The position numbers and the translations under genes were made by a program. Shown here one piece after another: positions 79-34,252 of a stretch of DNA of 34,350 bases (its first letter is position 1; each line of letters begins with the position of its first letter). The notes under the pieces are model-generated. The model was not told the origin of the DNA and did not search any database. It saw only the letters and a list, made by a program, of their open reading frames with translations. Source of the stretch: an uncultured cyanobacterium (GTDB taxonomy: Bacteria; Cyanobacteriota; Cyanobacteriia; Leptolyngbyales; Leptolyngbyaceae); NCBI GenBank assembly GCA_963766075.1, contig CAVYAN010000027.1, positions 1 through 34,350 of the forward strand. The letters are read 5' to 3'.

Positions 79-1651
79 ATGCTGATTGATGCCGATCTTT
101 TGCTGAACTATCAACGCTGCCATCGACGGGCGTTTCTGGATACCTACGGCGATTTAAACCGGCGGGATCCCCCCAACGACTACCTACTCAAACTGATGCA
201 GGACAGCCACCTGAACCAGCAGTCGGTTTTAGGGCAGCAAGACTATCGCAAACCCAAGGTCCCCCAGGGCGACTGGGCCGCTGGTGCCCAAGCCACCCTG
301 GAACTGATGCAACAAGGCGTTGATCGGATCTTCCAAGGTATCCTGTTAACCACCCTTGATGACGGCACTACCCTGCTCAGCCGCCCCGACTTATTAACCA
401 AAGCGACTGGACAGTCGCTTTTTGGAGACTGGGTTTACGTCCCCACTGAAATTAAGCTGGGCAAACGTCCCAAGCTAGAATACCAAATCATCACCGCCTA
501 CCACACCTACGTGCTCGCCCATGTGCAGGGGGCTTGGTCCGAAACGGCGTGGTTAGCGCTACGAGAGCGGGGAGACTATGAGGTCGATCTCTGGGAGATG
601 CTCCCCCGCATGCAGGGCCTGCTGATGGACTGTCTCCAGATGCTGCGCCAGGTTGAAGAGCCGGAGGTCTTCATTTCCCGAAGCCGCTGTAGTTTATGCC
701 ATTGGTTTAATCATTGCTATGCGATCGCCAAAACCGACCAACACCTTTCCCTATTACCGGGAGTCACGGCAGCCCGCTACATCCACCTGCAGCCGCTGCA
801 ACTCACCACCGTCAAAGCCCTAGCCGAAGTCCCTCCCACTCAACTGGAACCCCTCCCCGGCTTCGGCCCTGACGCCACCCACAAGCTGATCCGGCAAGCC
901 CGCGCCACCCTGCACAACCAGGCCATCTTGATTGACCCGGCCCCACTACAAATCGCCGTTGCCCACCTAACCGATGCCCCCTCTCCAGAAGCCCTAGCCC
1001 GCGAACACCGTTTCCCCACGCCAGCACCGTTTCCCCCGGCCCCGGCCCTGCCGCCAACCCCACGCTACCGACCTCCGGGATCCTTTCCGATTGAACTGTA
1101 CTTTGATATTGAAGCCGAGCCCGCCCTCAACCTGATTTATCTCCACGGTGTCCTCGTCGTCGATCGCCTCACGCGCACCCAAACCTTCTACCCCTTACTG
1201 GCAGAGCGTCCCGAAGACGAAAATCGCGTGTGGCAGCAATTTTTGGACCTGGTCTGGGGTTATCCAGAAGCGCCCATCTTTCACTTCTGTCCCTTTGAGG
1301 TGCAAACTGTCCAGCGACTCGCCCAACTCTATAAGACTCCCTACGAGCGGGTTCAGCCATTGCTGACCCGCTTTGTTGATCTCCATGATATTCCTCACCC
1401 GCACAGTTACCCTGCCGGTAGAAAGCTATGCGCTGAAGCAAATTGCCCGTTGGATGGGGTTTGATTGGCGCGACTCCACCGCAAACGGCGCACAATCCAT
1501 TTACTGGTATGCCCAGTGGTTACAAACAGGCGATCGCGCCTATCTCGACTCCATCCTGATCTACAACGAAGATGATTGTCGGGCCACGCATCACATCAAA
1601 GAATGGCTCGTAGCCTTTCTGCAGGCTGAATATTCCGCCGCCCGCGCGTAA
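79..1651 (+). CDS. TM0106-family RecB-like putative nuclease with C-terminal RNase H-like domain; one frameshift near 1385-1395
   Basis: ORF 79-1464 has RPDLL...EIKLG (PD-(D/E)xK-like), CSLCHW and YFDIEA. The family C-terminus (LPVESYALKQIA...YNEDDCRAT) continues in a second frame to 1651. Confidence 0.8.
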
Positions 1652-8816: not shown

Positions 8817-8889
8817 GCTGGTGTAGCTCAGTTGGTAGAGCAGCTGATTTGTAATCAGCCGGTCGCAAGTTCGAGTCTTGTCACCAGCT
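8817..8889 (+). tRNA. trnT: tRNA-Thr(TGT)
   Basis: Acceptor GCTGGTG/CACCAGC, D arm GCTCAGTTGGTAGAGC, anticodon arm GCTGA-TTTGTAA-TCAGC, T loop GTTCGAGTC; CCA not encoded. Confidence 0.97.
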
Positions 8890-14953: not shown

Positions 14954-16198
14954 ATGGTTTCCGCCAGTTCGTCGGGCAGCGGGTTTGCTGCGCTGCTGAA
15001 AAACCGTCCTTTTCTTTCGCTATGGACTGGACAAATTCTCTCCCAGATCGCCGATAAGGTATTTCTGGTGCTGTTGATTGTCTTGCTGGAGGTGTATTTG
15101 GTACCGCCAGAGTGGAAAAACTCGGCGCGATCGGCGTTACTGATCGCCAATACATTGCCCGCTGTGTTTTTTGGGTCGGCAGCAGGGATTTTTGTGGACC
15201 GCTACGACAAGCGCAAAATTCTAGTGGGCTCTAATCTGTTGCGCGGCTTGATGCTGCTTGTGGTGCCGCTCTTTCCCAAGGCGTTTGTTGTCCTATTGGT
15301 GATTGCTTTTCTGGAGTCGATTTTGACGCAGTTTTTTGCGCCAGCGGAACAGGCGGTGATTCCGCTGCTGGTGCCTCGCCAGGGGCTGATGAGTGCCAAT
15401 GCCTTGTTCACAACCACGATGATGGGGGCGATGATTGTGGGCTTTGCGATCGGGGAGCCGTTGCTATCGATCGCAAAGCAGTGGGGCGATTTTGGTCAAG
15501 AGTTCATGGTGGGCGGGCTGTATATGCTGGCGGCGTTGGTGCTCTATACGCTGCCCTTGCACCATACGGGGGCCGATCCCAAGCTGGAAACGGCGCATCC
15601 GTTGGAGGATTTAAAGGCGGGGTTGCGCTATCTGCGGCAGGATCGGTTGGTGAGTAATGCGATGCTGCAATTGACGGTGCTGTATTCCGTGTTTGCGGCG
15701 TTAACGCTGTTGGCAGCTCCACTAGTTGAGCAGTTGGGCTTGGATCAGAAGCGATTTTCACTGCTGCTGTCGGCGGCGGGGGTGGGCATGGTCTGTGGGG
15801 CGGCGCTGCTGGGACAGGTGGGCGATCGCCTGCGTCACAAGCCCCTGCCCTTGGTGGGCTTTTTGATTATGGCGGCGGCTCTGAGCCTCTTTGTCTTTGT
15901 GGATCAGATGCCGGTGGGCCTGGGTCTGAGCGTGCTGCTGGGCATTGGCGGATCCCTGGTGGGGGTGCCGATGCAAACCTTGATTCAGCAGCAAACGCCG
16001 GAGTCGATGCGGGGTAAGGTTTTTGGCTTTCAAAACAATCTGGTGAATATTGCCTTGAGTTTGCCGTTGGCGATTACGGGGGTGTTGACCGATCGCATTG
16101 GTTTGCGGGCGGTGCTGGTGGGGATGAGTGCGATCGTCTGTGTGGTGGGGCTGTGGGCCTGGAAAAATACTCGCAAGGTGCTGCGGGATGCGCTGTAA
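14954..16198 (+). CDS. MFS transporter
   Basis: LWTGQILSQIADK, AGIFVDRYDKRKIL (MFS motif A), QQQTPESMRGKVFG; many hydrophobic segments. Confidence 0.92.
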   Translation: MVSASSSGSGFAALLKNRPFLSLWTGQILSQIADKVFLVLLIVLLEVYLVPPEWKNSARSALLIANTLPAVFFGSAAGIFVDRYDKRKILVGSNLLRGLMLLVVPLFPKAFVVLLVIAFLESILTQFFAPAEQAVIPLLVPRQGLMSANALFTTTMMGAMIVGFAIGEPLLSIAKQWGDFGQEFMVGGLYMLAALVLYTLPLHHTGADPKLETAHPLEDLKAGLRYLRQDRLVSNAMLQLTVLYSVFAALTLLAAPLVEQLGLDQKRFSLLLSAAGVGMVCGAALLGQVGDRLRHKPLPLVGFLIMAAALSLFVFVDQMPVGLGLSVLLGIGGSLVGVPMQTLIQQQTPESMRGKVFGFQNNLVNIALSLPLAITGVLTDRIGLRAVLVGMSAIVCVVGLWAWKNTRKVLRDAL

Positions 16199-16334
16199 GG
16201 TTGGCGAAGCTGGGATGCTGTCAGGTAATACGTAAAGGCGACGTTCTGAGAACCCGAATTCACGCGTTGATCAAGCTGAGGATAACTTAGGCGATCGCGG
16301 AGTATTTAAGCAGCATTTCCGGCAATGGCGGGCG

Positions 16335-16595
16335 GGCTGTGTAGTATTGAGAACAAGCCCTTTTGCGATCGCCCCCGTCATTTCTTGGCAAGTTCAGCCC
16401 TATCTGCAATCGGTTTATGCGACCGATGAACGGTGGTGGCAGCTTTACACGTTGACCGATGCGGCGGGCAAGCAGCGGCAAGTGCAGGCGACTACGCCGC
16501 TATTTGATTTTGGATTGATGGTGCAGGCGATTGACCAAAGGCCGCCGCAGGTGTTGCTCGTCGGGCGGCCGAGCGCGGGCAGCGTGATAAACTGA
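16335..16595 (+). pseudogene. Degenerate 5' remnant of a NACHT-type gene (paralogue of 17210-17550)
   Basis: Shares upstream GGCTGTGTAGTATTGA and QPYL...WWQLYTLTDAAGK...FDFGLMVQAI with the 17255 gene; ATG lost, internal deletion, degraded P-loop VLLVGRPSAGS. Confidence 0.8.
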
Positions 16596-16599
16596 ACTT

Positions 16600-16878
16600 A
16601 TGAGATTTGAGTGGGACGAGTCTAAAAATCAAAGTAACCAACGAAAACATGGCTTGGACTTTGCTGAGGCTAAGCGAGTATTTAATCCTTCGTTGTTTGT
16701 GGATGTTGACGATCGCCAGGATTATGGAGAAGAGCGCTATGTCGGGATGGGGTTACTGGATGGACGGATTGTCGTTGTAATTTTCACCCAGCCTGATGAG
16801 GATACAGTTCGAGTCATCTCACTACGAAAAGCAACCTCTTATGAAAGACAACAATACTGTGAATACTTCCAAAACTGA
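16600..16878 (+). CDS. brnT: BrnT-family toxin
   Basis: MRFEWDESKNQSNQRKHGLDF, DDRQDYGEERY, RVISLRKA...ER. Confidence 0.93.
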   Translation: MRFEWDESKNQSNQRKHGLDFAEAKRVFNPSLFVDVDDRQDYGEERYVGMGLLDGRIVVVIFTQPDEDTVRVISLRKATSYERQQYCEYFQN

Positions 16879-17128
16879 TTGGGCGCGGGTTGATGCGATG
16901 GTCGATGAAGAAATTGATACGTCGGATAGTCCAGTGCTAACGGCCCAATTTTTCTCTCGGGCCAAGCCGTGGTCACCGGTTAACGCGAAGTCACAAGTTT
17001 CGGTGACGGTTGATGCCGAGACGTTGGCTTGGTTTGCCGGACAAGGTGAAGCGGCTGACCGACATTTGACTGCGGCGTTGCGAATTTATGCCGAAGCCCA
17101 GAAGTATGTAGAGACACCCTCGAATTGA
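16841..17128 (+). CDS. brnA: BrnA-family antitoxin
   Basis: SKTDWARVDAM.DEEIDTSDSP...FF, VSVTVDAETLAWF; overlaps the 3' end of brnT. Confidence 0.85.
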   Translation: MKDNNTVNTSKTDWARVDAMVDEEIDTSDSPVLTAQFFSRAKPWSPVNAKSQVSVTVDAETLAWFAGQGEAADRHLTAALRIYAEAQKYVETPSN

Positions 17129-17254
17129 GCCGGGTGATTATGCGCAAGCGGTTAGGGGCGATCGCGTCGATCTTCAGAAATCATCAACCGAAACTGGCGA
17201 TCGCCGTTTGGCTGTGTAGTATTGAAGACAACCCCCTTTGCGATCGCCCCCGCA

Positions 17255-17822
17255 ATGTCTGAGCCATTTCAGCCCTACCTAGAGTCGATTTGCGTCACCT
17301 ATGCCCAGTGGTGGCAACTCTACACGTTGACCGATGCGGCGGGGAAGGCGCAGCAGGCGAAACAAACCGCACCAACCTTTGATTTTGGGTTGATGGTGCA
17401 GGCGATCGCGCCACAAAAGCCTGGGATGGAAAGGGGCGATTCCAGCGATCGCGAAGAAAAAATTGAGCGTTTCGGCGTTCTAGAAGGTCTACGCAAGTAT
17501 GCCGATCTCCATGTGTTGTTGATTGGGCGACCGGGTTCGGGAAAATCGACGGCGTTGGCGCGGTTGATGTTAGAAGAGGCGACGCTTCAGACCTCGGAGG
17601 TTTTGGAAACCTCCGAGGTCTCGGACTCCCGCAGCACTCCCCGTATTCCCCTGCTGGTGGAGTTACGCTATTGGCAAGGTTCGATCGCCCAACTCATCCT
17701 CAATGCGTTGGCGCGGCATGGACTACCGCTAAAGACTGAGCAACTGGAGTCGGTGTTTTCGCGATCGCTCTTTCTGTTCGATGGGGTGAATGAACTGCCG
17801 TCGGAGGAGGAGCGATCGCAAA
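17255..17822 (+). pseudogene. 5' half of a NACHT (STAND NTPase) gene, truncated just after Walker B
   Basis: Walker A LIGRPGSGKST, IPLLVELR, Walker B LFDGVNELPS. Similarity ends at the HIP1 site 17812-17819, after which the frame runs into the retron 3' end. Confidence 0.85.
17589..17621. repeat. REP-like palindrome inside the NACHT reading frame (encodes TSEVLETSEV)
   Basis: AGACCTCGGAGGTTT-TGG-AAACCTCCGAGGTCT: perfect 15-bp arms, 3-nt loop, 33 bp in total. Confidence 0.85.
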
Positions 17823-17832
17823 AACACAGCTT

Positions 17833-19596
17833 CTACTGCTTTCTCTGTCTATAATGCGCTTCGATTACTTCTACAATTCGATCCAAAAGGGGTACAAATC
17901 CTTCAAAGTTGATTAAAGATGCCATCTCCTCGACAACCTTTTCGGCAAATACTGCTTTGCCGTATGTCGTTTCTGTTGCATTCTTAGCAGAACGATCAAA
18001 AGATTTTCCATTGATTTTTACAGCTAAAGTCGAGGCATCAAAGCAATCCTCAATTTGAGATTCAGTCTGACCTTGCTGAAGTGGGGTAAGAATGAGATAA
18101 AGGTTGCGATGGAGGTGGACATATGGTGGTTCCCCATTCTCTAGATTTGGTTTTGCCCTGTCGCCTTTTTTGACCATATTATTAATAACGTCACGAACCT
18201 CCTTCCCGGCTTTATCATGATCAACTAGCATAATGACTGGTTCCTGCATTCCAGGGGTGGAGAAATGCTCGAATTCGCTTTTAAATAACGGTATGAATTT
18301 CTTTAGATCTCCAGTACCTCCTTTTATGCCAATTATCTCAGCGGTGTTCCTCTTACTGGAATACTTAAGACGCTTAATCGCAAAAGTGACTTTTCCATCG
18401 GCATTCGACGATACAAGTGAAGGATACTGAGAGGCAAGTTGCCTTAGTGCGGTTTCAACATACACAAAATCAGTCAACCCTTCACAAATAAGTACAGGCT
18501 TAGATGCAACATAGAATTCTTTATAGAAAAGAAATCTGCGATATATCGTTTCTTTACTCTTGATTTGCGATTTATCAGAAGTAGAAAGTATTTCTATGTT
18601 ATCTCGATCAATACTATCAACATAGCCAAGCCTTCCATGAAGCTGATTTAGACTTCCCGGCTTCATTTCTAAAGCATAATCACCATTTGAATCTTTTTCA
18701 TAAGTTGGCAGAAGGAAACTTCCTTTTGTAAATAGACGATGCGCCATCGCTCGTATATTATGTCTATATTCACATCGGATATTGACTTTTTTATTAACTA
18801 CAAGGCCAGTAACTTCTTGCCTTGAATAGTAATATTGCATTCGGGTTTTCTTTGGATTAATTTCAAACCCTGAATGTGTTACTAAGCGCAAAAGTTCTGA
18901 ACCCGGAATCCAAGCATGATTGTCATCAGCACTTTGTATCGCAATACTTTTTGGGAAACAACGCTTGTTGGTAGAGAAAGTTAGATCATCCGCGTACCGT
19001 GTATAGCTACACCCTGTGCGAGCAGCCAGTCTTACCAAGTGCGCATCTAGTATATTACCGATCAAATTAGAGATGACGGGAGAGCAGGGACTGCCTTGAG
19101 GAAGACTCTTCTTGAAGCAAGCGATCTGTGCCAATATTGTGGCAACCTTAGGCTCTAGGTGAAATCGTTGATCTTGTATGAAAAAACCACGAACACGACC
19201 AAAATTGATCGAGCCAAAAAAGTTGGTTAAGTCAACATTAAATACATATCTTCGATTTCGATGCTCCTTTGCATTAGTACGGTTGGAAAGCCCACGTTTG
19301 AAGCCATGAGAGATTTGATCTAACGGTTTTGGCTGGTCGCTAGCGACACTCTGGTTAATTTCGTCTAAGCAGTCTTGCAGAAGATCTGCCAATCGCCTTT
19401 GAAGTACTTTTAGACCACTTTGTGGCGCTGCAATAGAACGCACTCCACCTGATCTCTTAGGAATATCAAATTCCTTGTATTTAACAGAATCAGGTTGTTT
19501 ATAGAGAATATACGACAGGCTTTTTGCTTGAAATCCAAAGATGCCTGCGACATCAGCAATAGTTTTAGCATCGCGTAACTTGCTTAGTGCAGACAT
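17833..19596 (-). CDS. Retron Ec67/Eco2-family reverse transcriptase fused to a TOPRIM nuclease (587 aa)
   Basis: RT motifs IPKRSGGVRSI.AP, SHGF, region X NAKEH, DLTNFFGSI, LPQGSPCSP, YADD (18985-18996), region Y VTGL; C-terminal TOPRIM LICEGLTD, VDHD, IEDCF, YGKAVFA. ATG at 19596 directly follows the ncRNA. Confidence 0.95.
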   Translation of the reverse strand: MSALSKLRDAKTIADVAGIFGFQAKSLSYILYKQPDSVKYKEFDIPKRSGGVRSIAAPQSGLKVLQRRLADLLQDCLDEINQSVASDQPKPLDQISHGFKRGLSNRTNAKEHRNRRYVFNVDLTNFFGSINFGRVRGFFIQDQRFHLEPKVATILAQIACFKKSLPQGSPCSPVISNLIGNILDAHLVRLAARTGCSYTRYADDLTFSTNKRCFPKSIAIQSADDNHAWIPGSELLRLVTHSGFEINPKKTRMQYYYSRQEVTGLVVNKKVNIRCEYRHNIRAMAHRLFTKGSFLLPTYEKDSNGDYALEMKPGSLNQLHGRLGYVDSIDRDNIEILSTSDKSQIKSKETIYRRFLFYKEFYVASKPVLICEGLTDFVYVETALRQLASQYPSLVSSNADGKVTFAIKRLKYSSKRNTAEIIGIKGGTGDLKKFIPLFKSEFEHFSTPGMQEPVIMLVDHDKAGKEVRDVINNMVKKGDRAKPNLENGEPPYVHLHRNLYLILTPLQQGQTESQIEDCFDASTLAVKINGKSFDRSAKNATETTYGKAVFAEKVVEEMASLINFEGFVPLLDRIVEVIEAHYRQRKQ

Positions 19597-19621
19597 CGAA
19601 CATTCGTTGCAATAAAGGTGG

Positions 19622-19752
19622 GCTTGCAGGCACTCCTTTGCGAACGCATAGAAGGAAACCCTAAGAGTAACCCTAGAGAGAAGTCTTAGCAGCCTAACGG
19701 CTAGCATTTGTTTCAAGTGTCACGAAGCATGACATAAAATCTGCCTACAAGC
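19622..19752 (-). ncRNA. msr-msd: Retron msr-msd RNA, Ec67-like
   Basis: 11-bp arms GCUUGUAGGCA (19752-19742) and UGCCUGCAAGC (19632-19622) with one G-U pair; G right after the 5' arm (19741); msr hairpin UGUCAU-GCUUC-GUGACA; both ends resemble the Ec67 ncRNA ends as I recall them (GCAUGUAGGCAGAUUU ... AAGGAGUGCCUGCAUGC). Confidence 0.9.
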
Positions 19753-19760
19753 TTAAGTAC

Positions 19761-19766
19761 ATACTA
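19761..19766 (-). promoter_or_regulatory. Candidate -10 element (TAGTAT) for the retron transcript
   Basis: TAnnnT hexamer 8 nt upstream of the 5' arm; no convincing -35 seen. Confidence 0.4.
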
Positions 19767-19798
19767 CAACATATAGACCTAAAGTGCGTCAGCTATTT

Positions 19799-19926
19799 GT
19801 TAGTGTCTTTAATTATTCGTCATCGACTGGAGAATAATCGAACGATTTTTGAAACCCTTATCTGGCGGATGCCCTGAAATCCAGGTTTTTATTCTCTAAT
19901 CAGTGGCGAAAATTAGTGACACTAAC
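19799..19926. mobile_element. 128-bp MITE-like element with about 39-bp imperfect terminal inverted repeats and 7-bp flanking direct repeat
   Basis: Ends GTTAGTGTCTTTAATT... and ...AATTAGTGACACTAAC; GCTATTT at 19792-19798 and 19927-19933. Confidence 0.75.
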
Positions 19927-20009
19927 GCTATTTCATGGTTTGTAGGTGCTTTAGTACTATCTGCGGACGTGATTTCGTCCATGTATGGGCTATTCGTGCT
20001 TTCCACATC

Positions 20010-20824
20010 TTCCCCGACCTCCTAAAACTCTTCCCTACAGAATCCGACGAACAGGCATTCTGAGCTAGCTACAAATACTACAATTATGAAATCTTCCGCT
20101 CCCCACCCGCCCAGCCCCAGCCCAGCCAGCAGGACACCCTTGCTAAAATCGGAACAACCGTAGACCTGATTGACTGACACAAGTCCTGCAAGCCTTGCGA
20201 GGAAGCGGTTTTGGTCTGGGGTGCTTTTTTTCGATTCTGAGGCTCTTGGGATTCGAGTGAAGTCCCTCCTGCGATTGAGTTTAAGCCCTATCACTGGGCT
20301 GTTGCCCAAACCCAGATAAGGCGGGGCATCCAAGAGATGTGTCAGTCAATCAGCCCGTAGACACCATCGCTAAAACCATGTCAGACCAACCCTCCATCGC
20401 CATCACCGGCGGTACCTTCAACGCCCCCGCCCCCAACCAAGGCCATCAACCTACCACCATCATCGGCACCCAACACAACTACTTCGGCACCGACGACACC
20501 CTCCTCCAACAAATCACCGAACTCCAACAATTCATCACCGAACTCGAAACCCAACACCCCCACATCCAAACCCTCCCCGAAGCCGAAGCCGCCCGCGACC
20601 AAGCCATCACCAAAATCCAAGCCACCAACCCCACCCGTTGGCAAACCATCCGCCACCAAATGCGCCTACTCAAACGCCAACTCCTCAACCCCGAGCGCCA
20701 CGCCCAAGCCGCCAAAGCCACCCTCATCGAAGTCACCAAAGCCGCATGGGAAAAAAGCCTGATCGCCAAAGCCACCATCACCTACATCGATAAACTCAGC
20801 GAAACCCCCGACCAAGGAGCTTAA
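20010..20824 (+). pseudogene. 3' remnant of a NACHT/HEAT-type gene, interrupted by a MITE; distal part intact as ORF 20378-20824
   Basis: Removing the MITE and one target copy gives a single frame FPDLLKLFPTESDEQAF*ASYKYYNYEIFRSPPAQPQPSQQDTLAKIGTTVDTIAKTMSDQP...; homologous to 21431-21590 and 23134-23538. The NACHT/HEAT link is from recall of similar cyanobacterial C-termini. Confidence 0.75.
20166..20353. mobile_element. 188-bp MITE with IS4-family (IS50/Tn5-like) 19-bp ends and 9-bp target duplication
   Basis: Left end CTGATTGACTGACACAAGT, right end (reverse complement) CTGATTGACTGACACATCT; flanks ACCGTAGAC (20157-20165) and CCCGTAGAC (20354-20362). Confidence 0.88.
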
Positions 20825-20830
20825 ATCATG
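20763..20830 (+). repeat. 68-bp near-identical direct repeat, copy 1 (copy 2 at 23477-23544)
   Basis: TCGCCAAAGCCAYCATCACCTACATCGAYAAACTCAGCGAAACCCCCGACCAAGGAGCTTAAATCATG; 2 mismatches; includes the stop codon, an AAGGAG RBS and the next ATG. Confidence 0.9.
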
Positions 20831-21055
20831 GAAATTGCACCTCACATTAATGTCGATCCGGCGATCTGCGGCGGTACCCCTGTGATCACGGGTACCCGTA
20901 TCCCAGTATCGATTGTCATTAGCGCCCTCGCCAGCGACATGACCGAAGCTGAAGTCATGGCCGAATACGTCCTTAGTCAACCTCAAATCAAGGCCGCTCT
21001 CGCCTACGCTGCCGATATGGTGAAACACGTCGAAGTCTTCCCAATTGGAGCCTAG
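20828..21055 (+). CDS. DUF433-family protein (putative antitoxin)
   Basis: INVDPAICGGTPVITGTRIPV...EVMAEY.LS..QIKAALAYA. Confidence 0.92.
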   Translation: MEIAPHINVDPAICGGTPVITGTRIPVSIVISALASDMTEAEVMAEYVLSQPQIKAALAYAADMVKHVEVFPIGA

Positions 21056-21058
21056 ACG

Positions 21059-21748
21059 GTGAATTTTCTAGTTGATGAAAATATGCCGCGATCGCTGGCC
21101 GCCAAAATCGCCGCGCTGGGCTTCGCCGTCCAAGATGTCCGAGACATTGGATTGGCAGGTTATCCCGATGAAGCAGTGATGCAAGTTGCCATCGCCACCG
21201 ATGCCATCATCATTACTGGCGATCGCCGCTTTGCTGATCCTCGCAGTTGGCCGGAAGCCTTCACCGCCGCTGTCATCTTCATTACACTGCCAGAAGGCAC
21301 ATCCAGTAGGATCTGGGTTGCTAAAGTCCTTGGACTCATCCAACATCGTCTACCCACTTCGCTCTTGGGTGCCTATACCACAGTAGAAATGAGTCGTTCC
21401 CTTTCGCGGCCCATCCGCCGTCGATCTAACGCGATCGCCTCCCACCTCCTGACCTTACTCCCCACCGATTCCGGTCAAAATGCCCATCGTGCCATCCTCG
21501 CCATCCAAGCCAACTGCAAATACTACAACCACGACATCTTCCGCTCTCCACCCGCCTTACCCCAGCCCAGCCAGTCCCCGACCCCAGGCACCACCATCCA
21601 CGTTGCAGGTGATTACATTGCGGGCGACAAAGTCCAAGGCGATAAAATTGCGGGTAACAAAACCGAATTCCCCAACGCCACCGAAGTCAAAATCTTCGAG
21701 CAAGTCGATCGCTACCACACAACCCCCACCCAAGATCCGCCATCATAG
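21059..21748 (+). CDS. DUF5615 PIN-like toxin (to about 21430) fused in frame to a NACHT/HEAT-type C-terminal remnant (21431-21748)
   Basis: FLVDENMPR, DVRDIGLAGYPDE, IIITGDRRF; after HIP1 at 21431-21438 the frame reads AILAIQANCKYYNHDIFRSPP...FPNATEVKIFEQV. Confidence 0.82.
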   Translation: MNFLVDENMPRSLAAKIAALGFAVQDVRDIGLAGYPDEAVMQVAIATDAIIITGDRRFADPRSWPEAFTAAVIFITLPEGTSSRIWVAKVLGLIQHRLPTSLLGAYTTVEMSRSLSRPIRRRSNAIASHLLTLLPTDSGQNAHRAILAIQANCKYYNHDIFRSPPALPQPSQSPTPGTTIHVAGDYIAGDKVQGDKIAGNKTEFPNATEVKIFEQVDRYHTTPTQDPPS

Positions 21749-21781
21749 AATCACACCCACCCATCCCGTTCAGAGAAAAAG

Positions 21782-22096
21782 ATGCTTGCACCCACTCCCT
21801 ATCCTCATCTCGAAACCCCCACGGGCCAACCCGCCTACCTTAAACGCCTCCCCCGTATCCGCGTCGCCCAGATCGTCATGGACTACCTCACCCACGGGTG
21901 GTCCGTCGATGAAATTTGCCACCAGCACCCCTACCTCCTCCCCGCCGAAGCCCACGCCGCCATGACCTACTACTTCGATCACCCCACCGCCATCGAAGCC
22001 GAAATTCAACAAGAACTGCAACAACTTGAACAAATCCGCGCCACCGCTCCTCCCTCGCGATTCCTTACCCGCATGCACACAGAAGGGAGACTGTAG
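21782..22096 (+). CDS. DUF433-family protein (putative antitoxin)
   Basis: RIRVAQIV, GWSVDEICHQHPYLLPAEAHAAMTYYFDH..IEAEI. Confidence 0.88.
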   Translation: MLAPTPYPHLETPTGQPAYLKRLPRIRVAQIVMDYLTHGWSVDEICHQHPYLLPAEAHAAMTYYFDHPTAIEAEIQQELQQLEQIRATAPPSRFLTRMHTEGRL

Positions 22097-22098
22097 GC

Positions 22099-22446
22099 AT
22101 GGCAATCGCGCTCTATATGGATGTCCACATCCCCCAATCCATCACCATCCAACTGCGTCGCCGCCACATCGACGTGCTGACCGCCCAGGAAGACAACGCA
22201 ATCGCACTGCCTGATCATGAACTGCTAGAACGCAGCACCACTCTCGGACGCGTCCTCTTTACCCAAGACATCCGCTTCCGCGCTCTAGCTGAAACTTGGC
22301 AACGCGAAGGCAAACCCTTTGCTGGACTGATCTTCGGTCATCAACTTGGCGGCACCATCGGGCAATTCGTCAAAGCTCTCGAATTCATTGCCCAAGCCTC
22401 CGACCCCGAAGACTGGCAAAACATGGTGGAATACATCCCATTCTAA
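22099..22446 (+). CDS. DUF5615 PIN-like protein (putative toxin)
   Basis: LYMDVHIP, LRRRHIDVLTAQED, LPDHELL, GRVLFTQD.RF, FAGLIF. Confidence 0.88.
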   Translation: MAIALYMDVHIPQSITIQLRRRHIDVLTAQEDNAIALPDHELLERSTTLGRVLFTQDIRFRALAETWQREGKPFAGLIFGHQLGGTIGQFVKALEFIAQASDPEDWQNMVEYIPF

Positions 22447-22486
22447 AATTCAAGCCCGTTAAACCTATCCCCCAGGACAAAAAATC

Positions 22487-22708
22487 ATGGTCTCAGCCCA
22501 ACTCATCGCCACCCTCGACAAACTCCCCCCCAACCTCCAAGCCGAAATCCTTCACTACGCCGAATACCTCGCCGCCCAATATACCCAAACCCCAAGCCCT
22601 GAAGCATCCCCACCCCAAACCTATCGGCAAGCCGGAACCATGAAAGGCATGTTCACCATGGCCGACGACTTCGACGCTCCCCTAGAAGACCTCAAAGACT
22701 ACATGTAA
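22487..22708 (+). CDS. DUF2281-family antitoxin
   Basis: LDKLPPNLQAEILHYAEYL...RQAGTMKGMFTMADDFDAPLEDLKDYM. Confidence 0.88.
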   Translation: MVSAQLIATLDKLPPNLQAEILHYAEYLAAQYTQTPSPEASPPQTYRQAGTMKGMFTMADDFDAPLEDLKDYM

Positions 22709-22710
22709 CC

Positions 22711-23092
22711 ATGACGCATCTGCTCGACACCCACACCCTGATCTGGTTTCTCGAAAACGACCCTCAACTTCCCACCGTCACCCGCATCCAGATCCAAACC
22801 ACCCCCACTCTCTTCATCAGCATCGTCTCCCTGTGGGAAATCGCTATCAAAGCCAACATCGGCAAACTCAAGCTCTCCTTTCCCTTCAACACAATTGAAC
22901 CTAACCTCATCGCCATAGGTATCACCCAACTTCCTGTCACCTTCAAAGACCTGGAAATCTACCTCTCTGCCCCTCCATCACCGCGACCCATTTGATCGAA
23001 TTCTTATCGCCCAAGCTATGAACCATTCCCTCACCTTCATCAGCCGAGATACCCAAATGGATACCTACCCCATTCAAAGACTTTGGGGCTAA
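22711..23092 (+). pseudogene. vapC: VapC/PIN toxin with a frameshift in a CT run near 22962-22970
   Basis: LLDTHTLIWF, SIVSLWEIAIK; continuation LPLHHRDPFDRILIAQA...ISRD...IQRLWG in a second frame ending at TAA 23092. May be a sequencing error. Confidence 0.85.
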
Positions 23093-23133
23093 TACAAGTC
23101 AAAAACCCCTCAAGTAAACCTAAAGATAATCAA

Positions 23134-23538
23134 ATGACGAATAATTCAAAATATAACTTTCCCAACGCTCAAAAAGTCCAAATCTTCGAGCAAGTAGAAA
23201 CCTATATCGAACACAACCACCTCACTGATCTTGAGATTAAAGCTGCCATTACCGATCTGCAAACCTTGATCAGCACCTTACAAACCCAGCACCCCACCGT
23301 CACTAGCGAAACCCAAGCCCTTGACATCATCGACGCCGAATTCACCGAAATTAAACACAACCCTAGCCACAAACTCGCCACCCTGCGCAAACAAATCCTC
23401 AACCCAGAACGTCATCTCCAAGCCACCAAAGTCACCCTCGGCGAAGTCGCCAAACACTATCTAGAAGAAAGCGTCTTCGCCAAAGCCATCATCACCTACA
23501 TCGACAAACTCAGCGAAACCCCCGACCAAGGAGCTTAA
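23134..23538 (+). CDS. Stand-alone C-terminal module, paralogue of 20378-20824
   Basis: FPNAQKVQIFEQV (compare FPNATEVKIFEQV near 21667), LNPERH.QA.K.TL.EV, ITYIDKLSETPDQGA. Confidence 0.75.
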   Translation: MTNNSKYNFPNAQKVQIFEQVETYIEHNHLTDLEIKAAITDLQTLISTLQTQHPTVTSETQALDIIDAEFTEIKHNPSHKLATLRKQILNPERHLQATKVTLGEVAKHYLEESVFAKAIITYIDKLSETPDQGA

Positions 23539-23541
23539 ATC

Positions 23542-23799
23542 ATGCAAATCACCACTCAGTTTGAAATCCCCGAAAACCTCGCCCCCTATCTCGCAGCCCA
23601 AATCACCACCGGAGCATACGCCACCCTCAACGACTACATCCAGTCCCTCGTTCAAGCCGACCTCACCCACAAAGTCCAACTCAAAACCAAATTGCTCGAA
23701 TCCCTCGAATCCCCCGCCACCCCTATGACCCCAGCCGACTGGGAGCACATCCGCGCCACCGTTCGCCAAAACATCAGTCAAGCCAATCCCAATGCCTAA
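23542..23799 (+). CDS. parD: ParD-family (RHH) antitoxin
   Basis: AQITTGAYATLNDYIQSLV, LLESLES..TPMTPADWEHIR; overlaps the start of a ParE-like frame. Confidence 0.8.
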   Translation: MQITTQFEIPENLAPYLAAQITTGAYATLNDYIQSLVQADLTHKVQLKTKLLESLESPATPMTPADWEHIRATVRQNISQANPNA

Positions 23800-23893
23800 A
23801 CTGATCAAACGTGCCGTCGTCATCCAAGATTTGATCGATATTGCCACCTACATCAGCCAAGACGCGCCAGCAAAATCGCGGGCATCGAACTGA
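23792..23893 (+). pseudogene. parE: 5' fragment of a RelE/ParE toxin
   Basis: MPKLIKRAVVIQDLIDIATYISQDAP then loss of similarity and a stop after 33 codons. Confidence 0.72.
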
Positions 23894-23991
23894 TGGAATT
23901 TCAAAAACTGATCAGCGATCGCGGCATCTGCATCCATTACGACGTTGAAGACTTTGCCCAAGATGTCCAACATCTCCGCGATCGGGGTTAA
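23863..23991 (+). pseudogene. 3' fragment of a UPF0175-family antitoxin
   Basis: ASKIAGIELMEFQKLISDRGICIHYDVEDFAQDVQHLRDRG*; the N-terminal half is missing. Confidence 0.7.
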
Positions 23992-25173
23992 TCATTCAGA
24001 AAGCATCTGGCGCTTTTTGACGGTGAAGTTACCGATCATGCCGATCGCGGCCAAACCCCAACCCACTAACCCGCCCAATAGTAATCCCGGCATTGATAGC
24101 CAATGGAAAAGCGCCAGCAAAGATGCGATCGCCGTCGCTATGCCCATGCCGCCAAAGTATAACCCCACGCCAAGTCCTGCATGATCGGGGGCAACCGTCA
24201 TTAATGCCCAGGGGACTTGAGCCACAAATAGCCAGCCCAATGAAATCCCTAAACTCGCCAGCATCATGGGTAATAGTAGGGTTGGCAAGCCTAGCAGCAA
24301 CACGAATAAGTTGAGTCCGACCCAACTGGCAGCGGTGAATAGGGCACGCCCCCACCCCCACCGCTGACTCGCCACCTCCATCGGCAACGTCGCGATCGCA
24401 CCAATGAGCAAAATTACCGTCACGATATAGGCGGGCGGCCAACCCAATAAGGGGTGTAGGATCGTCGGCGCTGTCCGCATCAGCAGATTCACCAAAAGTC
24501 CCAGCCCAATTCCAGTCACCAAAATTGTGCCCCTTTCCCAGGGAGAAGGCATTGCTGTTGGCGGTAGTTCGACGGTCACCTCTTGTAAACGCGGCTGACT
24601 TATCCACAGCACCAGGCCACCACTCACTAATAACCCTGCGCCCAATAGAAACGCCAATGACATGCCGATTTGCTGAATTAAATCTAAAAATAAAGGCCCA
24701 ATCGCTCCAGCCAATCCAAATACCACGGTCAAAATCCCATTCGCGATCGGCAATTCCCGACTGGGAGCCAACTGTCGGAGTAAGGCGATCGCGGGGCCGC
24801 GAAAAATGAGCATCGCGATGACCCAAAACGTCATCATCAATGGGACAAGCCAACGCCACATCGGGGGAATTTGAACCTGTAACACAGTGGCCGTCAAGAC
24901 AAAAATTAACCCCGCTAAGGTAATCCCAACGGTAATTTGTGGGAGGCGATCGCCGACTTTGCTCGCAAAGAGATCGGACAATGCGCCAATCCACGGTTCC
25001 ACCACGCCCCCCAAAAAACCTTGAAAGGCCGCTAGCAACACCACCCAATGACCAAAGCCCAGCTTTTGCAGAATGATCGGTTGATAGAAGTCATAAATCA
25101 TCCAACACAGCACAACCGCAATCAGCAATAGGGATAACCCTAAAACTTGTTTCCAAAGCATCAAAGGAGACAT
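23992..25173 (-). CDS. MFS transporter
   Basis: EPWIGALSD, IFRGPAIALL, GLGVGLYFGG; many hydrophobic segments. Confidence 0.85.
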   Translation of the reverse strand: MSPLMLWKQVLGLSLLLIAVVLCWMIYDFYQPIILQKLGFGHWVVLLAAFQGFLGGVVEPWIGALSDLFASKVGDRLPQITVGITLAGLIFVLTATVLQVQIPPMWRWLVPLMMTFWVIAMLIFRGPAIALLRQLAPSRELPIANGILTVVFGLAGAIGPLFLDLIQQIGMSLAFLLGAGLLVSGGLVLWISQPRLQEVTVELPPTAMPSPWERGTILVTGIGLGLLVNLLMRTAPTILHPLLGWPPAYIVTVILLIGAIATLPMEVASQRWGWGRALFTAASWVGLNLFVLLLGLPTLLLPMMLASLGISLGWLFVAQVPWALMTVAPDHAGLGVGLYFGGMGIATAIASLLALFHWLSMPGLLLGGLVGWGLAAIGMIGNFTVKKRQMLSE

Positions 25174-28967: not shown

Positions 28968-31519
28968 ATGCGTGCGATCTTCTCCCCATCCTGGTTGGCC
29001 ATCACCTTGGGACTCTTTGCTGGATGCGTTGGGTGGGCGGGCGGGCCGGACTCTGGGTGTGGAGCAGCGTTTGCCCAGATCATCCCCGACGGCACGTTAC
29101 CGACCACTGTGACCAGTCCGAATAATTTGGATTTTGCGATCGCGGGCGGCAGTCGTAGCGGTAACAATCTGTTTCATAGTTTCAGTCAATTCTCTGTGCC
29201 GACGGGTGGCGCTGCGGTCTTCAACAACGCTACCAATATCCAAAACATCTTCAGTCGCGTTACCGGAGGGAGTATTTCCAACATCGATGGCGCAATTCGC
29301 GCCAATGGCAGTGCCAATTTATTTTTACTCAATCCCAGTGGCATTCTGTTTGGCCCGAATGCCTCGTTGAATCTTGGCGGGTCGTTCATCGGCACTACTG
29401 CCCATAGTATTAAGTTTGCGGATGGGACGGAGTTCAACGCGACTCAGACCACAGGAATACCCTTGTTGACCATGAGTGTCCCCATGGGTTTGCAGATGGG
29501 CCAAAACCCAGGAGCCATTACCGTGCAAGGACCTGGACATCGCTTGATTGGCGAACTTTTTATCCCCCTCGATCGCAGCCAGGATCCGATCGGGCTACAA
29601 GTTGGAGCGGGCAATACCCTGGCGTTCATTGGTGGTGCAGTCAATTTCTCCGGTGGCGTTGCCACGGTGGCAGGGGGCGGGCATGTAGAAGTTGGGAGTG
29701 TCGGTGCGGGGCAAGTCAGGCTCAATCCCACAGCACAGGGGTGGGTCGGGGATTACTCAGCCGTGGGGCAATTCAATGATATTCATCTGGCGCAGCAATC
29801 GTTACTCGATGCCAGTGGTAGCGGCGGTTCGATCCAAATCCGGGGCCGGAATATCAACTTCACAGAAGGTTCCGCTGCCTTAATCCAAAATTTCGGTGCC
29901 CAACCCTTCGAGGGCATTACCATCAAAGCCACTGAAGCCCTGAATCTAACTGGGAATACACGGGATGGCAGATTGGGAAATCTGATCCGAATTGAGAATT
30001 TAGGCATCGGTCAGACAGGCGATATTACCATTGCGGCGGCCCAACTCTCTCTGCAAAACGGGGGAGATATTCGAGCGACTACTTATACATCTGGCTTCGG
30101 TGGCAATGTTGTAGTAAATGTCGCGGGTTTGATTGAAGCCAATGGGTTTGCACCCCTGAATCCAGGCTTCACGTCTGCCATTGCAGCAGGCACCTATGGG
30201 GCGGGCAACGCCAGTAATCTGACGATTGCAACCGGCAACCTCCGGTTGCTCAATGGCGGGAACATTCTTGCGTTTAGTGTTGGTCAGGGGCAGGCAGGCA
30301 TCATCCGGCTCAATACAACTGACTTAATCGAAATTGTTGGCATTAACCCGATAACATTTGGCGGGAGTGCGATAAATTCCACTGACACTCGGTCCTGGCA
30401 ATGCGAATAACATTTTCATCGATACATCTCGACTGGTGATTCGAGAATCTGGCGTATTGGGGGCTAGTGCTCTGGCTACGGGTTCAGCAGGTAACGTAAC
30501 AGTCAACGCGTCCACATCAGTGGATGTGAGCGGTAGAACCGCTGGATTTCTTCTGCCCAGCCAAATCATTTCAACGGCTCAAATCATCGATTCCATTACT
30601 CAAGCTATCTTTGGGCTACCTGCCGTTCCTACTGGGAATGCGGGCTTTCTCACCATTAATACCCCATCATTACGCATCACCGATGGGGCCGCCGTCACCG
30701 TCAAAAATGATGGTCCTGGCAGTGCGGGGAATGTGACGATTAACGCCGACTCGATTGTCGTGGACAACCGGAGCAGCATTACGGCATCCACTGCCTCTGG
30801 GAATGGTGGGGATATTCGCTTAAACGCTCAAGCAGTGCTGTTAATGCGCCACGGTAGTCTGATTTCTGCCACTGCTGCGGGTGCAGGGGATGGGGGTAAC
30901 CTATTGATGAATGCCCCGGTCATAGTGGGCTTAGAAAACAGCGACATTATTGCCAATGCGGTGAAGGGGCGAGGTGGCACCATTAACATCACCACCCAGG
31001 GCATCTTTGGCCTGAACTATCGCGCTCAGCTCACACCCGAAAATGACATTACGGCCAGTTCAGAATTTGGCGTCAACGGCACGGTTAAGATTACGACTCC
31101 GGGCGTTGATCCCAATGCAGGATTGGTGGCATTACCGCTGAATCTAACCGATTCGAGTCAGCACGTTGCCCAAGGCTGTGCGGGGGAACCAGGGCAGCAG
31201 TTTTGTGATCACGGGGCGGGGCGGGGTGCCGCTGAATCCGATGGAGCAGGTGAGGAGCGATCGCCCTTGGACCGACACCCGCGACCTCTCCGCCTTGCGG
31301 GCCCACGGTGCGCCCACAGCTCAAGCCCCAGCATCAGTATCTCCCACCACGGCACCGCTCGTCCAAGCCACGGGTTGGCGACGGAACGCCAATGGCCAGG
31401 TGGAACTCTATGCCGACATTGGGGCAACGGCTGTCCCAATGCCCCCAGGGGTAACTTGTGCTGAGGCGATCCCCGCTGAAACCTCAAGGTTGAATGTGGG
31501 CTTGAACGTGGGGCCTTAA
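28968..31519 (+). CDS. Filamentous haemagglutinin-family protein, copy 1; frameshifts near 30390 and 31185
   Basis: [38 protein letters not shown]-terminal ENSDIIANA, NDITASSEFG, SSFVITGRGG, LVQATGW. Confidence 0.88.
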
Positions 31520-31606
31520 TTCCCCGTCTGGCGTAGGCCACTGCCGAGTTGAGAAAGACCGCCTCCTGGGCACTCTATCAGTACCCTCTCATCAAGGACT
31601 GCGACC

Positions 31607-34113
31607 ATGCGTAAAATTGTCCCCCTAACCTGCTGCGCTGTCACCACTGGATTATCCATTGGGTTAGTGATGTTATCGGGGGGGCTTTCGCTCAAGTCAT
31701 CCCCGATGGGACTTTACCCACGACTGTGACCAGTCCGAATAATCTGAACTTTGCGATCGCGGGCGGCAGTCGTAGCGGCAACAATCTGTTTCATAGTTTC
31801 AGTCAATTCTCAGTGCCCCTAAATGGCTCTGCCGTCTTCAATAACGCCGCCGATATTCAAAATATCTTCAGTCGGGTCACTGGGGGTAGTGTTTCCCACA
31901 TTGATGGTTTGATTCAAGCCAATGGCACGGCCAATCTATTCTTACTTAATCCTAATGGCATTCTGTTTGGCCCCAATGCGGCATTAAATATTGGCGGTTC
32001 GTTTATCGGTACCACTGCTAATAGCATGTCAAATTTGCCGATGGGGTGGAGTTTAGTGCACTAAATGCGAATGGAACGCCGTTGTTGACAATGAGTGTGC
32101 CGATCAGTTTACAAATGGGGAGCAATCCAGCAGAAATTACGATTCAAGGAGCCGGACATCCACTCGCTCTACCCATTCCCGTCTTCTCACCCTTTATCCC
32201 AACTGGATCAACTTCAGGGATCGGCGTTAACCCTGACAAAACTCTGGCGGTGGCGGCAACATCACCTTGGCAGGCGGCACTATCAGTGCACAACAAGGCC
32301 GAATTGAATTAGGCAGTGTGGCTCAGGGCATCGTTAATCTTAGTCAAATCGACCAAGGTTGGGCCCTTAGTTATGGAGATAACTTACAGTACAGAGATAT
32401 TAGTCTATCTCAAAAAGCCTTGGTGGATACCAGTGGAACCAAGAGTGGGGCAATTCAGGTGCAAGCGCGTAATCTCTCGCTCCATGATGGATCGGTAATT
32501 TTGTCCCAAAATCAGGGATCCCAAACGGGTGGCTCGTTGACAGTCAAAACAACAGACTCGATCAACCTCATTGGCACATCTTCTGATGGACAAATGTATA
32601 GCGGGTTAATTCACCGAAAATCTGAATAGTGGATCAGGTGGCAAGATTACTGTTTCGGACCCAACGATTACTTTTACAAAATGGGGGAAGTATTACGGCT
32701 GCAGCATTTGGAACCGGCAATGGCGGTGATATTGAAGTTCATGCTACCGCATCGATGCAATTAGGCGGGTTGCCACTACCGGGTTCCCTAGATAGTCGAA
32801 TTAATGCTTTAACCTTTAATTCAGGAAAAGCTGGAGATGTGCAAATCTTGACAGGACAATTGCAGCTTCGGGATGGTGGGACAATCAATAGCATTACTTT
32901 TAGTCCTGGTTTTGGGGACACTGGCAAGGTCAACATTAACGCTACAGACGTGATTGATTTAGCCGGTGCTGACCCCGTGACCTTTTCTAAATCCGTGATT
33001 TCAGCCGCAACGTTTGGCGAGGGCAATGCGGATAATTTAGTCATTAACACCCGAACGTTAGTCGTGCGGGATGGGGGAAGAGTGACAACCTCCACCTTTG
33101 CGACTGGAATGCGGGTAACCTATTGATAAACGCAACTGAATCCATCGATATCAGGTGAGTGGTAAGTTTCCAGGATTGATTAACCCGAATTTGCTTGATT
33201 CTTCAATGCCAATATTTTAAGTGAAGTGACTCGCAATTTATTTCGCCTTCCGCCTCAGCCTACGGGGAATTCTGGTAACGTCACGGTTAACACCCCCGAC
33301 TTGAGAGTTAAGGATGGCGGTCTGATTTCGGTTAACAATCAAGGATCTGGAAATTCTGGTCTATTACAGAGTGAGTGCAAATAATGTCTTCTTGGATAAT
33401 CAAGGCGCTTTAACAGCATCAACGTTTTTGGGACAAGGTGGAAATATTCTGATTCAGGCAGACACTTTACTATTGCGGCACAATAGTCGACTGACAGCAA
33501 CAGCGCTCGGAGGACAAGGCAATGGGGGTAATGTTATCATCAATTCTCCGATTATTATCGGATTAGAAAACAGTGACATCATTGCCAATGCTATCCAAGG
33601 CCAGGGGGGTAACATCAGCATCACCACCCAAGGACTCTTTGGCCTCAAGTATCGGGATCAACAGACCCTGGACAACGATATTACCGCCAGCTCCCAATTT
33701 GGCCTCAGTGGCACGGTGGAAATTGCTACTCCGGGCATTGATTCGAATACAGGTTTAGTGGCATTACCCGTTGATATCGTCGATCCAGTCAGAAAATTGC
33801 GCAGAGGTGTGCAGCAAACCAGGGCAGCAGTTTTGTGGTGACGGGACGGGGTGGAATGCCGCTGAATCCAATGGAGCAGGTGAGGAGCGATCGCCCCTGG
33901 ACCGACACCCGCGACCTCTCCGCCTTGCGAGCCCACGGTGCGCCCATGGCTCCAGCCCCAGCATCAATGACTCCCACCCCCGCACCACTCATCCAAGCCA
34001 CGGGTTGGCGACGGAATGCCAAGGGCCAGGTGGAACTCTATGCCGAAACCCAGCCCGCCAGTGGCACAGCGATCGCAGGGGTCACCTGTACCGTGAGTCA
34101 TCAATCCCCGTAA
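31607..34113 (+). pseudogene. Filamentous haemagglutinin-family protein, copy 2; many frameshifts
   Basis: Same N- and C-terminal motifs as copy 1, split across ORFs 31726, 32046, 32267, 32629, 33371 and 33835. Confidence 0.82.
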
Positions 34114-34252
34114 CTGCCAAGCGCCCTCGCTCCTAGGGCTGCCCCAACGCAATGTACCCCGACGCAAACCATTGACTGAAATCGCGAATAAAAGAAATGG
34201 CATAATGGAGGCACAAGCGAAAACAACTCTGGAAGCGATCGCCCATCCCCCT

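Follow-up and report, generated by a model that had tools for sequence, protein, structure and literature searches.

Does the 34,350-nt stretch of DNA analysed here (the window), from an uncultured cyanobacterium, hold a complete and working anti-phage retron, and how would such a system have come to lie among broken genes? An earlier note had read positions 17833-19766 as a complete Ec67/Eco2-type retron, with a reverse transcriptase (RT)-TOPRIM fusion and an msr-msd RNA, horizontally acquired, probably functional and perhaps active against cyanophages. We put the probability at roughly 0.8 that the locus (Table 1) is an intact anti-phage retron of type I-C (the Ec67/Eco2 family, and within it most likely I-C1): the locus holds the gene with all of its catalytic residues and, ahead of it, an msr-msd RNA supported by covariation, and the intact motifs together with low dN/dS suggest that the retron is probably functional.

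Table 1. Features of the retron locus and of the sequences that adjoin it
Feature	Position	Strand	Basis or remark
RT-TOPRIM fusion gene (protein P0001), 587 aa	17833..19596	-	ORF, profile, PDB and fold matches
RT, residues ~1-365; TOPRIM, residues ~366-587			Boundary by analogy with Eco2 368/369 (PMC12405507)
Retron ncRNA (msr-msd), 131 nt, a2 arm to a1 arm	19622..19752	-	
a2 arm, 5' inverted repeat, 11 nt	19742..19752	-	
a1 arm, 3' inverted repeat, 11 nt	19622..19632	-	
Unpaired branching guanosine, equivalent of Eco2 G15	19741	-	G in 12 of 13 aligned loci
msr stem-loop, 7 pairs and 3-nt loop, equivalent of Eco2 RSL	19718..19734	-	
Predicted msDNA strand, ~70 nt	19634..19704	+	Ends predicted from Eco2 dT1 and G52
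Candidate -10 hexamer TAGTAT, 8 nt before a2	19761..19766	-	By eye, inferred only
N-terminal NACHT-HEAT-repeat gene remnant	17222..17820	+	55-60% identical to intact relatives of 750-930 aa
HIP1 octamer at junction of NACHT-HEAT remnant and retron 3' end	17812..17819	.	13 nt past retron stop
Decayed C-terminal NACHT-HEAT remnant	20010..20099	+	Weak match, tblastn E 0.026

An intact type I-C RT-TOPRIM gene

The intact ORF described in the earlier note runs on the minus strand from an ATG at 19596 to a TAG at 17835-17833 with no internal stop, and all six of the RT and TOPRIM motifs named there were confirmed in the protein (NAKEH at residue 108, QGSPCSP at 167, YADD at 201, VTGL at 262, CEGLTD at 371 and DHD at 459). 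A longer start at 19716, giving a 624-aa version (P0002), was rejected because it overlaps the ncRNA and because close relatives start at the methionine equivalent to 19596. The NCBIfam model retron_Ec67_fus (NF038237) matched residues 4-580 at 696.4 bits (cut-off 450), models for TIR-retrons, St85, group II introns and DRT2 each stayed under their own cut-offs, and PADLOC, which had been proposed as a check, ranked RT-Toprim_I-C first (718.6 bits; runner-up type, 341.7). In the PDB, Eco2 entries 9LM3/9I2F matched residues 2-583 (E 5e-122). An AlphaFold2 model of P0001, built from 102 sequences (pLDDT 89), returned five Eco2 chains as the first-ranking PDB hits in Foldseek (E 1e-51, 37-38% identity), with a TM-score of just 0.55 and an rmsd of ~10.5 Å; the low TM-score may reflect domain orientation. 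Profile, PADLOC, PDB and fold matches, with the RNA covariation described below, thus bear out the family assignment of the earlier note.

Conservation among homologs follows the catalytic sites, with N108, H112, Y201, D203 and D204 of the RT invariant in 119/119 homologs, the TOPRIM acids E372/D376/D459/D461 invariant in 102/102, and F43 (Eco2 F46) kept in 101/102. Compared with four relatives, the gene has a dN/dS of 0.145-0.19, which indicates purifying selection. As to subtype, TOPRIM motif IV EGxxD with motif V DxD marks I-C1 and I-C3, and DxE marks I-C2 (PMC7736814); the DHD of P0001 (DxD, not DxE) therefore excludes I-C2. These motifs fail to tell I-C1 from I-C3, but I-C1 is favoured because the ncRNA is Ec67-like and the table in PMC7736814 gives no ncRNA family for I-C3, so that the retron is most likely an ordinary type I-C member of subtype I-C1.

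The tree proposed as a further check gave the same placement. In a quick IQ-TREE analysis of 68 of the 129 aligned proteins, a set that did not include Eco2 itself, P0001 falls within a clade of 28 rows (SH-aLRT 99) with L001, L002, L005 and a Waterburya protein, and this clade is nested in a 58-row type I-C clade (SH-aLRT 96) that includes the RefSeq 'Ec67 family' proteins L020, L022, L040 and L042. The terminal branch of P0001 is short and unremarkable (0.076).

A covarying msr-msd RNA upstream of the gene

The structured non-coding region that the earlier note placed before the gene has exactly the length given there, 131 nt (19752-19622), and its structure is backed chiefly by covariation; folded alone, the RNA shows modest stability (z = -1.89; 7 of 200 shuffles fold equally well). 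We aligned 13 loci from cyanobacteria, Bacteroidota MAGs and proteobacteria, which have in common the layout a2, G, four unpaired bases, a hairpin with a 3-nt loop, a variable msd and a1. With this structure preset, two-sided changes occur in 17 of the 21 pairs and 94.5% of cells pair (slid controls, 27-43%; L020 lies one column off in the hairpin), and none of 500 shuffles matched, a count that is not a probability because the 13 sequences are kin. RNAalifold, unaided, recovered the same two helices. A model of the 13 loci, this one included, scored 90-124 bits on seven type I-C loci that had been held out, while 10 loci of other RTs gave a single weak match (24 bits). No Rfam model matches the retron ncRNA; the sole Rfam match in the window is a tRNA gene at 8817-8889.

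In Eco2 the msDNA starts at dT1 and termination falls 37 nt after the branch G (PMC12916289, PMC12405507). The msDNA predicted here folds weakly as DNA (-5.8 to -8.7 kcal/mol), as do those of 11 relatives, which fits the report that Eco2 msDNA strands pair in trans, not as hairpins (PMC12916289). A scan for the sigma-70 consensus found no minus-strand promoter for the retron, with counts as in shuffles, and missed the candidate -10; TAnnnT hexamers also lie 8-9 nt before a2 in L002, L004 and L005. A 'terminator' called by the scan at 19678-19659 was rejected as the msd hairpin.

Comparison with Retron-Eco2

Using the published Eco2 structures (PDB 9LM3, 9I2F, 9I2G and 9S1F; PMC12916289, PMC12405507), we mapped Eco2 residues to P0001 through their sequence alignment. 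The two systems share a single ORF of 586-587 aa after an ncRNA of ~130 nt, the motifs YADD, NAxxH, VTG, EGxxD and DxD, and an RNA in which the branch G is followed by four unpaired bases and then a stem with a 3-nt loop. Eco2 YADD 199-202 corresponds to 201-204 here, E374/D378/D460/D462 to E372/D376/D459/D461, F46 to F43 and H281 to H286, and equivalents of K245, R247 and S253 are retained. The differences begin with overall identity (37-38%) and include Eco2 R184, replaced by H186 (present in 99/102 homologs), Y421, replaced by E420, and a TOPRIM dyad that reads DHD here and DND in 99/102 homologs; msd sequences vary greatly from one family member to another. The host is cyanobacterial, unlike that of Eco2, and no prophage context was seen here.

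The most conspicuous difference is in the Eco2 loop 325-347, which is ~14 residues shorter here and lacks the equivalents of K325, K328, D331, R332 and Y333. Between its anchors the loop has 29 residues, compared with 42-49 in L020, L022, L023 and L042 and ~43 in Eco2. The Eco2 complex is a 3:3 trimer with a DNA three-way junction, in which this loop is the sole protein-protein contact and the msDNA, not the loop, is the main driver of trimer formation; alanine mutants of K325, K328 and R332 impaired defence and Y333A/V334A had no effect (PMC12916289, PMC12405507). For R332A, defence was abolished and trimers were partly impaired (PMC12405507). We rejected the idea that the short loop is a peculiarity of this copy, since 29 residues is the commonest form (48/119 homologs) and the loop of L040, from E. 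coli, is 28 residues long; judged from the homolog alignment, the short loop, H186 and E420 are clade traits rather than lesions.

Relatives and distribution

A protein search with P0001 gave 6,256 matches at E <= 1e-30 out of 7,995 candidates scored. Among the matches listed, a close group of ~40 lies at 64-86% identity (some of them partial), after which identity drops to ~55%. The majority of this group are unnamed metagenomic sequences, and the named members, like those of the sub-clade at 71-86% identity to which this copy belongs, are all cyanobacterial: five genome loci (71-76%), from Altericista sp. CCNU0014, Pseudanabaena sp. BL-A-41, Oscillatoriales SM2_2_1, Leptolyngbyaceae SM1_4_3 and Thermosynechococcaceae, and a Waterburya protein. 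RefSeq labels close relatives 'retron Ec67 family'. The cyanobacterial retrons compared resemble this copy in protein (71-76% identity), in a near-identical msr, in AT-richness and in the lack of HIP1, and four full-length loci are 74-78% identical to it in DNA from a2 to just beyond the stop (from ~19751 to 17830-17842 here), that is, over the RNA and the ORF and nothing else. They differ from it in neighbourhood, which is different at every locus and often consists of small TA-like genes.

None of 40 relatives carries a full-length match, and the NF038237 cut-off was passed by one of 400 other sampled genomes of the phylum, from another class; the Ec67 family is rare in the cyanobacterial phylum. 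The horizontal acquisition proposed in the earlier note is supported by this patchy distribution and by the different neighbourhood at each related locus. None of 21 candidates in viral contigs encodes a relative, and of 54 phage records matching P0001 one covers most of the protein, at 35% identity, so we found no link to prophages in the viral collection or the phage records.

Several related loci are of separate interest. At L001:2856 an A occupies the branch G position and L004:3001-4748 has an early ORF frameshift, each reflecting either a decaying copy or a MAG assembly error; because both look broken, copies of the retron do appear to decay. The Ec67-family retron L023 (G070), from another class of the phylum, is nearest to Shewanella and E. 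coli members, which suggests a separate acquisition. Two cyanobacterial RTs of ~590-600 aa, L010 (G003) and L026 (G184), carry the motif EGKTD and an a1/a2-flanked RNA of another kind, fall under the NF038237 cut-off (G184: 392 bits) and group with RT-only cyanobacterial retrons, not with the Ec67 clade; they are possibly a separate RT-TOPRIM fusion.

Composition

The earlier note also remarked that the segment is more AT-rich than its flanks and lacks the HIP1 octamer (GCGATCGC), and both observations hold. The GC content of 17833-19766 is 0.406 (2-kb flanks, 0.54 and 0.533; genome, 0.5355), a value matched by 8 of 2,549 equal-length genome tiles, and GC3 is 0.33 in the RT-TOPRIM gene but 0.61-0.70 in seven further window ORFs. 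HIP1 octamers number 6,932 genome-wide (1.37 per kb), which also identifies the host as cyanobacterial, but 185 of the 2,549 tiles are likewise free of them, so their absence is weak evidence by itself. In five cyanobacterial genome loci and L052 the cassette is also 35-41% GC and HIP1-free, although the flanks do carry HIP1. This likeness in composition persists despite a dS of 0.6-1.3 between the relatives compared and this copy. We therefore rejected the absence of HIP1, common to all cyanobacterial relatives checked, as proof of recent import: composition sets the segment apart from its host, as the earlier note had it, but with the same AT-richness and lack of HIP1 in the cyanobacterial relatives it dates no recent jump from another phylum. 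The composition marks a mobile cassette lineage that is not adopting host features.

Cassette-like relatives and a junction at a HIP1 octamer

Some relatives lie between sites that resemble integron attC sites, a reading based on attC anatomy rather than on IntegronFinder. A covariance model built solely from six such sites of the host genome gave 22 matches in that genome (the six included), scattered over many contigs. It also matched on both sides of the L001 retron (35.6 and 61.9 bits), downstream of the L052 retron (76.4 bits) and next to the retron in five of nine sister loci at 53-55% identity (both sides in L006, L056 and L058; upstream in L057 and L008). No match was found in L002-L005 or L053, two of which are without upstream sequence. 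L001 and L052 thus keep attC-like sites and this copy does not: with filters off, nothing in 16000-24300 scored better than E 2.1, and the window has no attC-like site. Elsewhere in the host, an intact integron integrase (IntI) lies on another contig (G000:C41:95203-96141; 464.6 bits, cut-off 265), and several short 3' fragments of integron integrase lie on other contigs. Integrons occur in cyanobacteria (PMC4889954), and integron cassettes carry anti-phage systems (bioRxiv 10.1101/2024.07.02.601719), though neither the abstract of the latter work nor its passage on defence cassettes describes a retron cassette. The relatives share the anatomy of such cassettes, one unit between attC-like sites; this copy, unlike them, has no attC-like site at its boundary.

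Instead, the retron lies head-on to the first ~190 codons of a NACHT-HEAT gene, whose similarity to intact relatives ends at 17820, at the HIP1 octamer. Among intact NACHT-HEAT relatives, the junction codon carries a full octamer in L044, seven of eight bases in another and none in a third; among retrons, HIP1 lies 10 nt past the stop of L004 and is lacking there in five other close loci. A random breakpoint would touch HIP1 with a chance of 1.6% genome-wide, or ~10% within the HIP1-rich remnant, and HIP1-linked site-specific and illegitimate recombination has been reported (PMC4390886); the pattern was spotted post hoc and is suggestive only. A 23-nt inverted repeat (87%) at 17753-17827, just past the retron stop, sits on two HIP1 sites across this junction; it may be a hairpin resembling a terminator, or may simply have arisen from the joining event.

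The earlier note fairly described the RT-TOPRIM gene as the one long gene left intact in an island of fragments, since 16300-24000 holds no other listed ORF longer than 229 aa and the NACHT-HEAT pieces and a PIN gene are broken. Short genes of the BrnT/BrnA-like, DUF433/DUF5615 and DUF2281 kinds, however, keep open frames of normal length. NACHT-HEAT remnants in this island are N-terminal at 16347 and 17222 and C-terminal at 20010, 21416, 21668 and 23128 (20010-20099 being an 84% DNA repeat of 21508-21574), and they are interleaved with small TA-like modules: a BrnT/BrnA-like one, two DUF433/DUF5615 pairs and DUF2281/PIN, frameshifted near 22970. Judged by eye, the island also seems to hold a gene of ParD type and the truncated start of one of ParE type; no integrase or transposase was seen within the island. 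Upstream of the retron, an AT-rich element at 19798-19926 has 16-nt terminal inverted repeats, is not attC by the model and shares 99 nt with an 88% copy at G000:C101:71903-72001, and 29-nt inverted repeats 130 nt apart at 20166-20353 resemble a small MITE remnant, with no second copy in the genome. Farther along the window, 28968-34136 holds fragmented large exoprotein genes, by eye of the filamentous-haemagglutinin family, with many ORFs and a duplicated 3' end.

Proposed function and alternative readings

By analogy with Eco2, for which msDNA caging, a nuclease trigger and an RNase have been described (PMC12916289, PMC12405507), the RT would prime on the 2'-OH of G19741 and copy the msd into a branched DNA of ~70 nt. 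RT-TOPRIM/msDNA units would then assemble with the msDNA caging the TOPRIM sites, a phage DNase that cut the msDNA would release the RNase, and the freed RNase would nick tRNAs and other RNAs, shutting down translation and limiting phage spread. As to history, the retron may stem from a mobile, AT-rich cyanobacterial cassette lineage, some members of which are integron cassettes, and this copy, without attC, would have ended in its present TA-rich patch between pieces of a NACHT-HEAT gene. Against the type I-C anti-phage reading we counted the shorter loop, H186 and E420, the broken L001 and L004, the lack of a consensus promoter and the TM-score of 0.55.

Three other readings bear on these points. 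That the RT is not of a retron at all, being instead that of a group II intron maturase, a DGR, an Abi system or a DRT, is scarcely credible: its weak matches to group_II_RT_mat (48.8 bits) and Drt2 (32.4 bits) fall far under the cut-offs of 300 and 390, the retron-specific NAxxH and VTG motifs, the TOPRIM fusion and the msr-msd RNA are present, and in the tree P0001 groups with proteins that RefSeq assigns to the 'Ec67 family' and stands apart from L013 and L011, the most divergent RTs included. We regard a non-retron identity as refuted by PADLOC, NCBIfam, the PDB match and RNA covariation. It is distinctly improbable, though less readily dismissed, that the locus truly belongs to the family but is silent or does not work in this host, whether stranded among gene fragments, deprived of its promoter context or untriggered by cyanophage nucleases. 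Its neighbours are gene fragments, two of the five named cyanobacterial relatives bear lesions, the minus strand lacks a consensus promoter and some phages with DenB or A1 evade Eco2 (PMC12916289); set against this are an ORF and RNA free of lesions, a candidate -10 at conserved spacing, the short terminal branch and a dN/dS below 0.2, albeit one that averages over the lineage and is blind to very recent silencing.

We also consider it unlikely that this is a type I-C variant that forms no Eco2-like trimer, and that, for want of the trimer loop, acts as a monomer or in some other oligomeric state, its msDNA cage folded in another way. The short loop, the loss of Eco2 defence in R332A and the poor pairing of the predicted msDNA as DNA would agree with such a variant, but it is msDNA that drives the Eco2 trimer, Y333A/V334A is without effect, the short form of the loop is the commonest and occurs in E. 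coli, and msds fold weakly throughout the family. Our preferred reading thus remains an intact type I-C anti-phage retron. An extension of it, which we offer as a doubtful conjecture, is that a cyanobacteria-adapted Ec67-type lineage spreads as an integron cassette and is re-homed outside arrays by HIP1 recombination, with this copy as a HIP1-anchored junction, a short loop that may alter assembly and a trigger tuned to cyanophage nucleases.

Significance

Retrons as such are known in cyanobacteria (PMC7736814, PMC9716671). In the literature on retrons with cyanobacteria, type I-C or integrons, we found no work dealing with a type I-C retron from a cyanobacterium; the supplement of PMC7736814 may list such sequences. 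The locus is an apparently intact new member of a known, structurally solved system, to which a rare host lineage, cassette mobility and a short loop are modest extras, and it leaves the known biology of type I-C retrons unchanged. If active, it would give cyanobacteria a small anti-phage system of their own, made up of two parts, which might be used to protect strains in culture and perhaps to supply msDNA for genome editing in phototrophs. As a natural short-loop variant, it offers a test of the need for the Eco2 protein-protein contact in trimer formation. Finally, the relatives flanked by attC-like sites, together with the junction at HIP1, hint at ways in which defence cassettes may move among cyanobacteria, movement that bears modestly on the question of what HIP1 does.
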